Made by a program: the position numbers and the translations under genes. Shown here piece after piece: positions 6,129 through 57,628 of a stretch of DNA of 64,000 bases. Source of the stretch: a virus (lineage: Duplodnaviria; Heunggongvirae; Uroviricota; Caudoviricetes). Under the pieces are notes generated by a model. That model was not told the DNA's origin. It ran no database searches and saw only the letters and a program-made list of their open reading frames with translations. Position 1 is the first letter of the stretch, and each line of letters opens with the position of its first letter. Location: the IMG/VR virus record IMGVR_UViG_3300005573_001627; one strand, given 5' to 3'.

Positions 6129-6412
6129 TGATACCTAAAAATAAAAAACTACAAGAATTGTATAATCAAAAGATTAATTTGATTAAGGAATTAGCCAAAA
6201 TAACTAATAACATAGAAAAATGTTTAGAAAAATGTAAACATAAAATAATCAAACAAGGAGATTTTGACGGAGCAATCGCAGTTTGCGAAGAATGTGGGAA
6301 ACATTTTGGTTGGTGGTGTGAAGAAAGCAAAGAGCATTTATGCAAATATGATGAAGAAGATATAGCCCACGATAATTGCATTTATTGTCATAAACCAGAG
6401 GAAAGAAAATGA
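6128..6412 (+). CDS. Cys/His-rich zinc-binding protein
   Basis: CLEKCKHK, CEECG, CIYCH. Confidence 0.45.
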   Translation: MIPKNKKLQELYNQKINLIKELAKITNNIEKCLEKCKHKIIKQGDFDGAIAVCEECGKHFGWWCEESKEHLCKYDEEDIAHDNCIYCHKPEERK

Positions 6413-7440
6413 ATATAAATTTGTTTAATGAAGCAACAAGAATAATGAACCCTCATCCTATATATTTGGTTGGTGGTGCAGTTAGAGATTGCCTTTTGGG
6501 AAAAGAACCAAAAGATTATGATTTTTGCACTTCTGCAACTCCTGATATTATTGAAGAAAGAATACATCGTGATGGAAAACGTGCTTATTTGACTGGGAAA
6601 AGATTTGGTACGATTGGTTGTAAAATAGATGGGCAGATGATTGAGATTACTACATTTCGTTCAGAAGAATATGAAAAAGCAAACAGAAAACCAAAAGTGG
6701 CTTATGTAAAAAACCTACAGCAAGATTTGAGCAGAAGAGATTTCACTATTAATGCTATGGCGATGAGATTAATTAAAGGAAAGATAAAACTTGTGGATAT
6801 TTATGGTGGGAAAAAGGATTTAGAGTTAAAGATAATCCGTTGCGTTGGAAATCCTAAACAAAGATTTAAAGAGGACGCTTTGAGAATATTAAGAGCAATA
6901 CGCTTCGCTTCACAATTAGGATTTAAGATAGAAGATAAATCTTTTATAAAAATGAAGGAGATGGCTATATCCATTCTTAATATTTCAAAGGAAAGATGGA
7001 TTATGGAATTAGATAAGATATTCTTATCTGAGAATATAGGTATAGGGATTGATTATCTTTTTTCATCTAATTTGATTAAATATATTATCCCTGAAATGTC
7101 GCTTCAGGAAGGATATAACCAAAAAAGCAAGTATCATAATTTTACTTTACTTGAACATACAAAAAAAGTAGTAATTGCTACTCCACAAGAAATCAATCTC
7201 CGATGGGGTGCATTTTTGCACGATATTGCTAAACCCTTTGTTATGTCAGAAAATAAGAAAGGTTACAATAATTATATAGGACACGAGATACTTGGTGCAG
7301 AGATGGTTTTAAAATTAGCAGATTATCTCAAATGGAGTAATGAACGCAAAGACAAAGTCGTGGCTCTTGTACGAGAACATCTCAAAGATAATTCAGAATT
7401 AAGAAAGTATGATAATTTAGGGAAGAAAAATGAAAACTAA
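6409..7440 (+). CDS. cca: class II (bacterial-type) CCA-adding tRNA nucleotidyltransferase / poly(A) polymerase family with C-terminal HD domain
   Basis: GGAVRDCLLGKEPKDYD head motif, RRDFTINAMA motif, downstream HDIAKP..H HD signature. Confidence 0.85.
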   Translation: MNINLFNEATRIMNPHPIYLVGGAVRDCLLGKEPKDYDFCTSATPDIIEERIHRDGKRAYLTGKRFGTIGCKIDGQMIEITTFRSEEYEKANRKPKVAYVKNLQQDLSRRDFTINAMAMRLIKGKIKLVDIYGGKKDLELKIIRCVGNPKQRFKEDALRILRAIRFASQLGFKIEDKSFIKMKEMAISILNISKERWIMELDKIFLSENIGIGIDYLFSSNLIKYIIPEMSLQEGYNQKSKYHNFTLLEHTKKVVIATPQEINLRWGAFLHDIAKPFVMSENKKGYNNYIGHEILGAEMVLKLADYLKWSNERKDKVVALVREHLKDNSELRKYDNLGKKNEN

Positions 7441-7648
7441 AAAAATTGATTTTGTTTATAATTATTTAGAATACGAAATTCGCCTTAAATGTAAATGCAA
7501 AAACGAGATTATTATTAGTGGAGATGATGATTGGAGAGGTAACATCTGCCCTAAATGTAAAAGAAAATATCAGTTTCAATTAAATGGAAAAGTGAAAGAA
7601 ATTAAGGGAAAAAATGATAAACGGAATAGAAACAAGCCCATCAAATAG
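7430..7648 (+). CDS. zinc-ribbon protein
   Basis: CKCKN..CPKCKRKY. Confidence 0.45.
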   Translation: MKTKKIDFVYNYLEYEIRLKCKCKNEIIISGDDDWRGNICPKCKRKYQFQLNGKVKEIKGKNDKRNRNKPIK

Positions 7649-7832
7649 AGCAAATTGTATTAAATGTAGGCGTCCTATCCTCAAGGGAGAACTGAGAGGC
7701 AAAATCTATAATGACAGATTTAATAGTTTCAATTTTGTATGCGAAGAATGTGCATATAAAGAAATTTTATCAAATATTGAGGAATTACAAAAGATGAAAC
7801 AAGAATTAGAATTAGTAGGAGTAACAGAGTAG
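7614..7832 (+). CDS. zinc-finger protein
   Basis: CIKCRRP..CEECAYKE. Confidence 0.45.
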   Translation: MINGIETSPSNRANCIKCRRPILKGELRGKIYNDRFNSFNFVCEECAYKEILSNIEELQKMKQELELVGVTE

Positions 7833-7968
7833 TCTCTTTTACCGCTACTCCATAATTGACCATTTTACGCATAAAAAAGTTTAAAATTTGATGAAAAATG
7901 ATAAAAAATATAAAAAATGCAAAGATTTATAAACCACTTTTGAGTGACAATAAATGGAGAAATGAACT

Positions 7969-55618: not shown

Positions 55619-55826
55619 ACCTGAACCAGATTATTGCCCGCATATAAATCAATGTACTGAATCACGAAGAGATATTTGTTATAATCATAAAGAATATCAA
55701 AATTGTGGTTTTTATGAAGCACAAAATACAATAGCAAAAGTGCGAAAAGAAAATGAAAAAGGATTAGCAAAAAAGGTGGGTGACAAACTTGGAAATCCAA
55801 AAGACAAAAACTGGGGACAATTATAA
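55605..55826 (+). CDS. small Cys protein
   Basis: CPHINQCTESRRDICYNHKEYQNCGFYE. Confidence 0.4.
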   Translation: MTNPEPEPDYCPHINQCTESRRDICYNHKEYQNCGFYEAQNTIAKVRKENEKGLAKKVGDKLGNPKDKNWGQL

Positions 55827-56139
55827 AATCTTTAGTGAAGATTACGCAAAAAAAATAGCCCCTTCAATATTTGCAATAGCGATTGGAAGCATTGCATTAT
55901 CAATGGCATTTAATTCATTAAAAGTTAGTGGAATCATGGATGAACAAAGAAAAATATGCAAAGAGTGTATGAAAAAAGGGCACATTGCAACAGCAGATTT
56001 TGGTGGTAAATTTCGTTGCAAGATTTGTCATAGATTAGTCACAGGAGTTCCATCTATGGGGCATGGAGTTACTTGTATTAATTGCCAAAGAGAAGGATAT
56101 TGCAAATATTGTGGTAAAAGAATTATTGAAATAATATGA
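55780..56139 (+). CDS. zinc-binding protein
   Basis: CKECMKKGH..CKICHRL..CINCQREGYCKYCGK; start uncertain. Confidence 0.4.
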   Translation: MTNLEIQKTKTGDNYKIFSEDYAKKIAPSIFAIAIGSIALSMAFNSLKVSGIMDEQRKICKECMKKGHIATADFGGKFRCKICHRLVTGVPSMGHGVTCINCQREGYCKYCGKRIIEII

Positions 56140-56378
56140 GAAGAACAAAATGCCCTTTATGTAATCGCGGAACATTGGTAGAAAAGAATATAAAGGAGAA
56201 AATGCACGGAGTTTTGTTAGGAACTTTTCCTGCAGAGGTTTGTACTCATTGTGGAGAGGCCTTTACAAATGCTAAAACAACTAGCACAATAATCAAAATA
56301 GCGCAAAGAAAGAACGTTTGGAGGAAATATGAAGATGAAAAACAAATTCGAAATTTCAGGAACAATTGGCGACGCTAG
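56136..56378 (+). CDS. zinc-ribbon protein
   Basis: CPLCNRG..CTHCGEAF. Confidence 0.45.
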   Translation: MRRTKCPLCNRGTLVEKNIKEKMHGVLLGTFPAEVCTHCGEAFTNAKTTSTIIKIAQRKNVWRKYEDEKQIRNFRNNWRR

Positions 56379-56631
56379 TTGGGAACAAATGCGAGATTTC
56401 TTAATCATTGGATTAAGCGAGTGCGATTCTGAACAAAAATTTCTTAAATTGATAACGGCTTTAACATTATCTATTGGAACCCCAAAAGATTTAGCAAAAT
56501 TAAGAGAAAAAATGGGAATTCATAGATTTACAGAAAATGATTTAGATAGAATAGATAAATGGAAGGAGGAAAAAAATGAGCGAAAGAAAACTAGCAACAA
56601 TCCAGAAGATTCTGAAACTGGAAAAGCATGA
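56329..56631 (+). CDS. hypothetical protein
   Basis: 100 aa. Confidence 0.35.
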   Translation: MKMKNKFEISGTIGDASWEQMRDFLIIGLSECDSEQKFLKLITALTLSIGTPKDLAKLREKMGIHRFTENDLDRIDKWKEEKNERKKTSNNPEDSETGKA

Positions 56632-57628
56632 AAATGCAGATACTTTAGAAATAGCAAGGGTTCTCGGTTGGCAATGCGTTGTTAAGAAAGGCGAATTTCA
56701 AGAAGGTCAGTTAATAGTTTATTTGGAAGTTGATTCAGTTACTCCTCCATTACCTGAATTTGATTTTCTAAAGGAAAGAAAATATAGGATAAAAACAATC
56801 AAATTAAGAGGCGCATTCTCTCAAGGATTAATTATGCCTCTTTCGATTCTTGATGGAAAGAAATTCCCTGAAGATACAAGAGAAAATCCTGTTTATGATT
56901 GGCATGAAAATCAAGAAGTAACAACTCTTCTTGGTGTTACTAAATATGAACCTTATATTCCTCCAAATCTTGCAGGAGAAATAAAAGGAAACTTTCCAGG
57001 ATTTCTTCAGAAGAGTGACCAAACAAGAGTGCAAGTATTGCGTCCATTACTTGAAAAGTATAAGGGAACAAAATGTTCTATTTCAGAAAAGATTGATGGT
57101 GCAAGTGTTACATTTTATATTAGAGATGGAGAATTTGGAGTCTGTAGCAGAAATCTTGAATTAAAAGAAACAGGAGACAACACTATTTGGAAATGGGTTA
57201 GAAAGAATGATATAGAAAACAAATTAAGAGAATTAAATAATAATATAGCAATCCAAGGAGAAATAGTCGGGCCCGGGATAAATAAGAACACTTTGAAATT
57301 GAAATATATCGATGTTTATTTTTATGACGCCTTTGATATTCAAACATTCAAGTATTATGATTTAAATGAATTCAAGATTCTACTTGAAAACAAATTGAAA
57401 TTAAAGACAGTTCCAATGGTTCAATATGATTTTACCTTAATAGATAATATAGACGACCTTGTAAAACTTTCAATGGGAGTTTCAAAGATAAATCCTGAAG
57501 GCCCCCGTGAAGGGATTGTTATCAGGCCAATCAAAGAAATTTATGATGTTACAGTGATGGAAGATAATAATGGCAGAATTTCATTTAAGGTTGTAAATCC
57601 AGAATTCCTTATCCGCTATGATGAATAA
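56576..57628 (+). CDS. ATP-dependent RNA ligase, Rnl5-like (N-terminal OB domain + nucleotidyltransferase)
   Basis: motif I K172 in SEKIDGAS, motif IV IQGEIVGPGI; ~170-aa N-terminal extension as in DraRnl/NgrRnl. Confidence 0.7.
   Translation: MSERKLATIQKILKLEKHENADTLEIARVLGWQCVVKKGEFQEGQLIVYLEVDSVTPPLPEFDFLKERKYRIKTIKLRGAFSQGLIMPLSILDGKKFPEDTRENPVYDWHENQEVTTLLGVTKYEPYIPPNLAGEIKGNFPGFLQKSDQTRVQVLRPLLEKYKGTKCSISEKIDGASVTFYIRDGEFGVCSRNLELKETGDNTIWKWVRKNDIENKLRELNNNIAIQGEIVGPGINKNTLKLKYIDVYFYDAFDIQTFKYYDLNEFKILLENKLKLKTVPMVQYDFTLIDNIDDLVKLSMGVSKINPEGPREGIVIRPIKEIYDVTVMEDNNGRISFKVVNPEFLIRYDE

Follow-up and report, generated by a model that had tools for sequence, protein, structure and literature searches.

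Phage T4 repairs the tRNA-Lys cut by PrrC with Pnkp and Rnl1, the latter a ligase specific for stem-loops, and metal-independent anticodon nucleases leave ends that carry 5'-OH and 2',3'-cyclic phosphate. In bacterial Pnkp/Hen1 and in mycobacteriophage Pnkp, a calcineurin-superfamily domain can be the phosphatase that heals RNA 3' ends, and the HD domain of E. coli Cca-type enzymes has phosphatase and 2',3'-cyclic phosphodiesterase activities. Jumbo phages carry tRNAs, RNA ligases, end-healing enzymes, RlaP, a CCA-adding enzyme and PTH2 as a counter-defence repertoire (PMC7824862, section 3.4.9), and RlaP adds nucleotides to damaged RNA 3' ends (PMC12776372). The haloarchaeal tailed virus HGTV-1 encodes 36 tRNAs, two Rnl2-family ligases, a CCA-adding enzyme, RtcB and LysRS (PMC8651126). 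Here, a gene set of this general kind was analyzed in the virus record IMGVR_UViG_3300005573_001627 (Caudoviricetes), represented by a stretch of 64,000 nucleotides, referred to below as the window, from a virus-like genome of about 169 kb. An initial annotation had described four matching parts of an RNA-repair toolkit in this window: an RNA ligase, a CCA-adding enzyme, a phosphoesterase and a tRNA-like gene.

The reading favored here, with moderate confidence, is that this is a large, probably archaeal virus with a partial and dispersed set of genes for RNA-end maintenance, and not with one coordinated pathway for repairing breaks. Domain identities, active-site motifs and gene order underlie this reading; substrates and any cooperation between the parts are proposed from them. 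The four parts were 1.6 to 50 kb apart and thus do not form an operon. Their description as co-directional was true but trivial, since the + strand holds nearly every open reading frame (ORF) between positions 1 and ~60200. All three protein families were common in phages, as judged by matches to PHROG families and by phage records.

The 84 kb inspected comprised the window and 10 kb on each flank. A system like that of T4 brings together a kinase, a 3'-phosphatase and an Rnl1 or Rnl4 ligase, whereas here no kinase was found, the ligase belonged to Rnl5 and the genes were separated by 9-50 kb. No kinase, RtcB, RlaP, PTH2, 2H or HAD domain was detected in a Pfam scan of 97 further window ORFs, and the flanks added no kinase, RtcB or RlaP. 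Walker A motifs occurred only in a primase-helicase, a 97-aa ORF and a 517-aa protein, the last two without a match to a kinase family. Searches of the window with RtcB, RlaP, PTH2, CTP_transf and other RNA ligases from related viruses (blastp and tblastn) found none of them. A kinase would be required for a pathway of healing and sealing, because the ends must be 5'-phosphate and 3'-OH for an ATP-dependent ligase to act, while the breaks carry 5'-OH and 2',3'-cyclic phosphate. The proposed integrated repair of anticodon-nuclease breaks was therefore not upheld: no 5'-kinase was found in the 84 kb, Rnl5 ligases seal nicks in duplexes, and the tRNA-like gene is not a usable tRNA.

Assembly of the toolkit from different families, pointed out in the initial annotation, is not new in kind, as such sets are already described for jumbo phages and HGTV-1 (PMC7824862, PMC8651126). 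The jumbo-phage sets (Iyer et al. 2021, PMC7824862) contain largely the same families, with occasional calcineurin-like and HD phosphatases and RtcB, and their genes are often scattered, as here. Their ligases are mostly Rnl1 or Rnl2 and their kinases track the ligases, whereas here the ligase was an Rnl5, no kinase was seen, tRNAs were few and the host is probably archaeal. HGTV-1, compared by description only, is alike in being an archaeal virus with a CCA-adding enzyme, RNA ligases and tRNAs (PMC8651126), but in the part inspected the present virus had a single Rnl5 ligase and no RtcB, with one canonical tRNA besides the tRNA-like gene. T4 shares the general counter-defence logic and a virus-encoded ATP-dependent ligase that needs 3'-OH and 5'-phosphate ends; it differs in having a kinase-phosphatase, and its ligase is Rnl1, whereas Rnl5 prefers duplex nicks.

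The 350-aa protein encoded at 56576..57628 (+) was predicted to be an ATP-dependent nick-sealing RNA ligase of the Rnl5 family. Pfam matches to PF21189 (PHA02142 OB-fold, 6e-27) at residues 6-89 and to PF09414 (RNA_ligase, 4e-25) at residues 168-340 gave the Rnl5 architecture of an N-terminal OB domain before a nucleotidyltransferase domain, with no C-terminal specificity module. The protein scored 170 bits against NCBIfam TIGR02306 (cut-off 151) over residues 6-347, and it matched the Naegleria gruberi ligase NgrRnl (PDB 5cot) over residues 2-319 (E 2e-59) and phrog_968, annotated as RNA ligase (1e-69). Motif I (KxDG) read KIDG, with Lys172 as the nucleophile, equivalent to K170 of NgrRnl, and the alignment was also identical at R4, D53, K121, R149, D172, E227 and E312 (in REGIVIRP). 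The roles of the ATP- and metal-binding residues have been described for NgrRnl (PMC7261155). T145 of NgrRnl, which contacts the ATP ribose, was replaced by Ser. A motif V-like sequence, SFKVVN, was present outside the pairwise alignment, and its equivalence to NgrRnl K326 is by motif only. The initial annotation of an Rnl5-type ligase with an OB domain and a KxDG lysine near position 172 was thus confirmed, and readings of the protein as a DNA ligase, a capping enzyme or an inactive homolog fail because the Rnl5 match is full-length and the ATP- and metal-binding residues are conserved. Full-length homology, domain architecture and active-site residues are shared with NgrRnl and with DraRnl of Deinococcus radiodurans (PMC4408790, PMC7261155, PMC5397189); the differences from NgrRnl are an identity of ~40% and the viral, archaeal setting.

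Rnl5 enzymes seal duplex nicks in which one strand ends in an RNA 3'-OH, including RNA-DNA junctions, and are feeble on single-stranded RNA, while the repair of anticodon-loop breaks is the province of Rnl1 and Rnl4 (PMC4408790). Loss of DraRnl leads to radiation sensitivity, and a role in RNA-patch DNA repair has been proposed (PMC4408790, PMC5397189). The window ligase would be active and, with ATP, would seal 3'-OH/5'-phosphate nicks in duplexes that contain RNA; tRNA or rRNA stems and RNA-DNA junctions are both conceivable targets. Orthologs with 64-67% identity were found in two long loci, L005 and L008, of which L008 was syntenic with the window at 54-63 kb, and in L005 the ortholog was 4-8 kb from seven tRNAs. 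Rnl5 ligases occurred in 357 isolated phage records, including an Altiarchaeum virus; a search of IMG/VR by peptide patterns found no relatives of the ligase.

The second enzyme, encoded at 6409..7440 (+), was a 343-aa class II tRNA nucleotidyltransferase of the CCA-adding type with a C-terminal HD domain, as initially annotated. Pfam recognized the PolyA_pol head (1e-38), PolyA_pol_RNAbd (9e-14) and, over residues 261-329, HD (PF01966, 2e-8). The class II head with motifs A, B and D and the E. coli-type C-terminal HD domain were predicted from sequence, with GGAVRD at 22, DYD at 36, RRD at 109, EDALR at 155 and an HD dyad (LHD) at 270-271. The best PDB match was the CCA-adding enzyme 6ibp (4e-47). 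The best NCBIfam matches were CCA tRNA nucleotidyltransferases, all under the equivalog cut-offs, and PcnB also scored 160 bits. The enzyme shares head, neck/RNA-binding and HD domains and motifs A-D with the E. coli type of class II Cca, from which it differs in being shorter (343 versus ~410 aa) and in falling under every equivalog cut-off. It matched phrog_2244 (9e-70), and close relatives of 330-380 aa with 55-65% identity and the same three domains were abundant on virus-like contigs of up to 140 kb. Such an enzyme had been called unusual in an archaeal context. This holds for archaeal cells, but not for viruses, in which it is the ordinary type, with 506 isolated phage records of class II CCA enzymes.

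The maturation and repair of tRNA 3' ends by this enzyme is the best-supported function in the set. A tRNA-Met(CAT) gene was located on the opposite strand ~8 kb past the window end. Neither this gene nor the tRNA genes in the arrays of related viruses encoded CCA, whereas tRNAs of bacteriophage loci did. Since tRNAs here and in the relatives lack an encoded CCA, the simple job of the viral enzyme would be their maturation, with end repair as an extension. Most likely the enzyme would add or restore the 3'-CCA on tRNAs from genes without it, and the proposed substrates are the virus's own tRNA-Met, whose gene is outside the window, host tRNAs whose ends are damaged, and possibly the tRNA-like RNA. 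By analogy with the E. coli enzyme, the HD domain may clear 3'-phosphate or 2',3'-cyclic phosphate ends.

The third part, at 47674..48162 (+), encoded a 162-aa calcineurin-superfamily metallophosphoesterase of the aq_1665/phrog_547 clade. The superfamily assignment was supported by Metallophos (6e-10), Metallophos_2 (3e-7), a match to phrog_547, annotated as phosphoesterase (3e-47), and intact metal-binding motifs (D8-x-H10, G52-D53, G78-N79-H80-D81, H107 and G124-H125-x-H127) that were invariant or nearly so in 28 homologs. Its description as the kind used in Pnkp, in contrast, holds only at the level of the superfamily. PDB searches matched 1xm7 (aq_1665) only, with the single sequence (5e-8) and with a profile of 28 sequences (7e-19), and the profile search returned no Pnkp, lambda phosphatase or Mre11. 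Scores against the NCBIfam models of PdeM and YfcE were under the cut-offs. No P-loop kinase was fused or adjacent to it in the Pfam scan, and the neighboring ORFs had no kinase match; the protein thus differs from Pnkp/Hen1 in having no fused or neighboring kinase or Hen1 and no detectable PDB relation to Pnkp phosphatase domains. It appears to be an active member of an uncharacterized clade, which may or may not act on RNA ends.

The phrog_547 phosphoesterase was found in about 2000 phage records (1997). In 22 of 34 IMG/VR loci with homologs (L030-L063) there were same-strand tRNAs within 6 kb of the phosphoesterase gene, a count without a baseline control. Seven of the 34, from phages of 35-52% GC, had a tRNA within ~220 nt, which places the phosphoesterase gene inside a tRNA array. 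AAA_33/Zeta kinases were near three of the homologs and an Rnl5 ligase was present in one locus (L037). Other neighbors were DSP-type phosphatases (six loci) and DUF2828/DUF7788 (two). In Bacillus phage vB_BcgM, a homolog was encoded between the DnaB helicase and SbcD/SbcC.

The fourth part, at 9053..9168 (+), was an orphan tRNA-like gene with a tRNA-Tyr-like core. Its canonical features were a 7-bp acceptor stem (with G1.U72), U8, a D arm with GG, the T loop UUCAAAU and A73; no CCA was encoded and a run of seven T followed directly. Departures from tRNA rules were a bulged U in the T stem, G15.G48, and AAGUAUA at positions 32-38, which places GUA at 34-36 with A33 and U37. Folding showed a 41-nt insert pairing perfectly with the anticodon loop to give a 12-bp helix within a 58-nt hairpin, at -39.4 kcal/mol overall (z = -4.2 against shuffles). 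The anticodon loop, being fully paired with the insert, thus lacked the seven-nucleotide form in which position 33 is U and position 37 a purine. ARAGORN with default settings made no call in the window, and Rfam gave no match at gathering thresholds and no tRNA at E ≤ 10. ARAGORN called tRNA-Tyr(GTA) by default only after manual deletion of the insert and the T-stem bulge; with a relaxed threshold and the intron option it made a low-scoring call in a shifted register, the only version with U33 in the loop. The cloverleaf core and the fold of the initially annotated gene therefore stood, but it is not a usable tRNA, was rejected by ARAGORN and Rfam, and was absent from relatives.

Other readings of the hairpin were rejected. 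The gene is not an archaeal intron-containing tRNA because there was no bulge-helix-bulge motif: the junction was the perfect 12-bp helix, and the only irregularities, a bulge of 1 nt and some small internal loops, came deeper in the hairpin. In addition, no choice of splice sites in the standard register gave U33 and a purine at 37. Readings as a C/D-box element or as a class II long variable arm were rejected on inspection of the sequence.

No homolog of the tRNA-like gene was found in IMG/VR, in GTDB genomes (searched with the 5' half) or in any of the fetched loci (blastn), and it was missing from the syntenic site in 10 metagenomic relatives with 54-87% identity in the upstream flanking gene. 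Its 3' half matched ordinary phage tRNA-Tyr and tRNA-Leu genes only, and the D-arm pattern gave one chance match. The sequence was identical across independent assemblies, but these differed by just 2-3 bases in 12-14 kb, so the identity says little about constraint. The gene would be a lineage-specific derivative of a tRNA-Tyr-type gene that could not decode. It is quite possible, if somewhat doubtful, that it is a decaying tRNA-Tyr pseudogene with no function in the toolkit, in which an inverted-duplication event turned the anticodon loop into a stem; the several departures from tRNA rules and the absence of homologs and of a syntenic counterpart are as expected from decay. Against decay, the acceptor stem, both the D and the T loop and the discriminator were intact, the T run followed directly, and the 12-bp helix was perfect, not eroded, in a fold much better than that of shuffled sequences.

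A relic and a specialized mimic are about equally likely. As a mimic, the RNA may shield its anticodon loop from anticodon nucleases with the long helix, and it could titrate tRNA-targeting defense proteins or serve as a Y-RNA-like scaffold for repair enzymes. YrlA-type bacterial Y RNAs are tRNA mimics partnered with Ro60/Rsr and RtcB, have a tRNA-like body with a long helix in the place of the anticodon arm, and occur in RNA-repair neighborhoods (PMC4201824). The topology is permuted, in that the RNA here ends at the acceptor stem and YrlA at the long helix. The window ORFs included no TROVE/Ro protein, none was on record for the flanks, and the RNA had no Rfam match.

Directly upstream of the tRNA-like gene, 8429..9010 (+) encoded a 193-aa protein of unknown function (phrog_4652, 2e-20), with 35% identity (3e-19) to the last gene of a CCA-PTH2-RtcB-RlaP operon in L024. 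Its link to the toolkit is by gene position only, and a search of IMG/VR by peptide patterns found no relatives. Further tRNA-like sequences, missed by ARAGORN and Rfam, were seen in gaps of the tRNA arrays at L024:18475-18627 (-) and L026:3013-3155 (-); one array-gap example looked like a tRNA-Ala(UGC) whose acceptor stem contained several G.U pairs. In this lineage, aberrant tRNAs seem to be common.

Analysis of gene neighborhoods in related viruses showed that orthologs of the CCA enzyme (57-65% identity) were encoded in operons with RtcB, PTH2 and RlaP beside arrays of at least 20 tRNAs. In L024 the order was CCA-x-PTH2-x-RtcB-x-RlaP, followed by 21 or more tRNAs, an RNase P RNA and a further RNA ligase (a PF09414 protein). 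L028 had RlaP-amidoligase-PTH2-YopX-RtcB-HNH-CCA, and L029 had PTH2-x-CCA with RtcB 7 kb away. In L026, 20 or more tRNAs and an Rnl2-like ligase preceded CCA-RlaP-CTP_transf-Fic-HNH. The ligases of L024 and L026 were not orthologous to that of the window. L008 encoded the Rnl5 ortholog and a 591-aa PolyA_pol and HD protein. The combination of an RNA ligase, a CCA-type enzyme and tRNA in one virus genome was found here, and RNA-maintenance sets of this kind recurred in L008, L024, L026, L028 and L029. The coupling of such functions in related elements, which had been anticipated, was borne out by these operons beside tRNA arrays. Co-occurrence of the individual parts was found for the ligase with a PolyA_pol and HD protein (L008), but it did not extend to the tRNA-like gene or to the phosphoesterase, which was not seen in stretches of ~20 kb from L005, L008, L024 and L026. 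For this lineage, RNA maintenance is a genuine theme, given the CCA operons beside arrays of CCA-less tRNAs and the presence of one or another RNA ligase, and the set in the window is reduced and scattered compared with its own relatives.

Within the tRNA array of L024 (16376-18776), amid the 21 or more CCA-less tRNA genes, 16677-16900 (-) encoded an RNase P RNA of archaeal type, which scored 95.3 bits for RF00373 (gathering score 84; E 4e-25). To our knowledge, no virus-encoded RNase P RNA has been described.

The host of this ~169-kb virus-like genome is probably an archaeon and possibly belongs to the DPANN group. An archaeal setting was supported by the homologs of an S_layer_C-like protein, by promoter-like sites and by the RNase P RNA of L024, which was binned as Pacearchaeota and also contained terminase and Mu-F genes. 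The 803-aa protein encoded at 20999-23410 (+) matched the archaeal S_layer_C family; its homologs were confined to metagenomic contigs, the named ones being archaeal metagenome-assembled genomes (MAGs; Thermoprotei and Pacearchaeota), and isolated phages yielded no match. It showed 28-71% identity across many large metagenomic contigs attributed to archaea, and a role as a surface protein, either structural or mimicking the host, is conceivable. The sequence GAAANNTTTAAATA, which combines a transcription factor B recognition element with a TATA-like element, had four exact matches on the + strand (15332, 20876, 24788 and 40385), all of them intergenic and 55-123 nt upstream of + strand genes. 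An identical leader, AATTAATTAGATAAATAAA-ATG, was common to three genes (before 24861, 40454 and 58787), while other window genes had GGAGG 8-12 nt ahead of ATG. A scan of a genome collection with the CCA enzyme returned distant bacterial MAG matches only (34-42%) and was uninformative on the host. The possibility of a Borg-like element was dropped, as a tandem-repeat scan found only short low-complexity arrays.

Several points weigh against the favored reading. About 85 kb of the genome lies outside the inspected part, and a kinase, RtcB or tRNA array there may complete a pathway. The embedding of phosphoesterase homologs in tRNA arrays, with AAA_33 kinases nearby, hints at a more specific tRNA role for this protein. 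CCA addition is not separable by sequence from addition of A only or of poly(A), with the CCA families scoring best. The archaeal host is drawn from MAG labels, promoter-like motifs and the RNase P RNA of a distant relative, and not from a CRISPR spacer or provirus.

It is unlikely, but worth weighing, that the three enzymes serve unrelated processes. Only the CCA enzyme would then act on tRNA, the ligase would work in DNA replication or repair and seal the RNA-3'-OH/5'-phosphate-DNA junctions that arise from PrimPol priming or from a mini Pol X that inserts ribonucleotides, and the phosphoesterase would belong to DNA metabolism or to the turnover of a nucleotide signal. A role of the ligase in replication or repair is a live rival because a primase-helicase of the PrimPol-D5 type (37993-40263) and a minimal Pol X are both encoded in the window. 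The activity of Rnl5 enzymes on RNA-DNA junctions and the radiation sensitivity behind the RNA-patch proposal point the same way, as do the position of the vB_BcgM phosphoesterase homolog beside replication and recombination genes and the nearest NCBIfam model of the phosphoesterase, the ligase-associated DNA-damage endonuclease PdeM, although under cut-off. Against this, no Pol X homolog was near the ligase orthologs in L005 or L008, the L005 ortholog was close to tRNAs, relatives pair an RNA ligase with tRNA arrays and CCA operons, and genes of the phosphoesterase family often sit within tRNA arrays.

A somewhat less probable account, and one we doubt, is integrated healing and sealing of tRNAs cut by host anticodon nucleases: 2',3'-cyclic or 3'-phosphate would be removed by the phosphoesterase, the HD domain or both, the 5'-OH would be phosphorylated by a kinase that the host supplies or that is encoded elsewhere, Rnl5 would seal, CCA would be restored, and the tRNA-like RNA would be a spare substrate or decoy. 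The RtcB-RlaP-PTH2-CCA operons of relatives, the pairing of ligase and PolyA_pol and HD protein in L008, and phosphoesterase homologs in tRNA arrays, sometimes beside AAA_33 kinases or an Rnl5 ligase (L037), are consistent with it, and in a few jumbo phages calcineurin-like and HD domains have been proposed as RNA-end phosphatases (PMC7824862). However, no kinase was found in the 84 kb, anticodon loops are left to Rnl1 and Rnl4 while Rnl5 seals duplex nicks and is feeble on single strands, the phosphoesterase and Pnkp are related only through the superfamily, the genes are 40-50 kb apart, the phosphoesterase was not seen in the ~20-kb stretches of the four relatives, and the tRNA-like gene is not conserved. 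Least probable is the joint proposal that the tRNA-like gene is a purpose-built tRNA mimic, processable by RNase P and the viral CCA enzyme and with a buried anticodon loop, and that the phosphoesterase is a tRNA-end-processing enzyme.

The G+C content of the window was ~31% with strongly positive GC skew, and the window was identical to parts of metagenomic contigs that came from several samples and reached 169.5 kb. Most window ORFs had no Pfam match. Besides the primase-helicase, the recognizable ones included ParB-like proteins, a DNA methyltransferase, an SPFH protein, a UDP-glucose dehydrogenase-like protein, Fic, the minimal Pol X and a pyruvoyl arginine decarboxylase. The Pol X-like nucleotidyltransferase (27830..28291, +) had 153 aa with palm and thumb (DNA_pol_B_thumb 2e-9, DNA_pol_B_palm 1e-4, GSIRRQ...DVDV), and the gene was preceded by the 97-aa ORF, whose Walker A-like motif reads GLSKTGKT. 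The Fic-domain protein (18938..19438, +; Pfam Fic 1e-14) had the canonical motif HPFEDGNGRTGR and 67% identity to the Fic of the CCA-RlaP operon in L026 and 56% to that of L008. Fic orthologs were located one small ORF downstream of the Rnl5 ligase in L008 (11233-11829) and L009 (1642-2238), and in the L026 operon at 14350-14814.

Tandem GT-rich, C-poor units of ~85-110 nt, each ending in GGYAAGGAA..(A/T)TCATATTC-like sequence, were present in the window at 9175-9350, ~17300-17440 and 46420-47200 and in relatives at L024:15594-16020, at positions 3691, 5092, 7441 and 7872 of L008, and in L067, L069, L070, L072 and L073. Their position between the 193-aa and ParB-like genes was conserved across relatives, with varying copy number, and they are candidates for centromere-like iterons, promoter arrays or small RNAs. 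The only large minus-strand genes of the window, 60805-62358 (-) and 62397-63368 (-), had in common a motif of ~40 aa, L(T/N)WPQAKxKYPxxNPFxDxDxDGxxNxxDCRPFN, that resembled the thrombospondin type-3 calcium-binding repeat. The same motif occurred in six consecutive minus-strand proteins of L008 (14056-21050), one of which, of 591 aa, had PolyA_pol and HD after the motif. The pyruvoyl-dependent arginine decarboxylase gene (63455-64000, +) ran past the window end, beyond which (L065) were genes for YdjM, a small DnaQ/PolB-exo-like exonuclease and a TPM-domain protein, and a gene-free gap of 940 nt.

Two leads arise from the window itself: the aq_1665-type phosphoesterase, with its ~2000 phage records and frequent position inside tRNA arrays but no known substrate, and a tRNA-like RNA with a sealed anticodon arm that has no known relative or function. 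The lineage looks more interesting than the window, with its CCA-RtcB-RlaP-PTH2 operons, CCA-less arrays of at least 20 tRNAs and one archaeal RNase P RNA. If the modest reading is true, this would be one more large virus that brings its own tRNA-end maintenance enzymes, probably to an archaeal and possibly to a DPANN host, and a viral class II CCA enzyme would circulate among archaeal viruses, whereas archaeal cells use class I.

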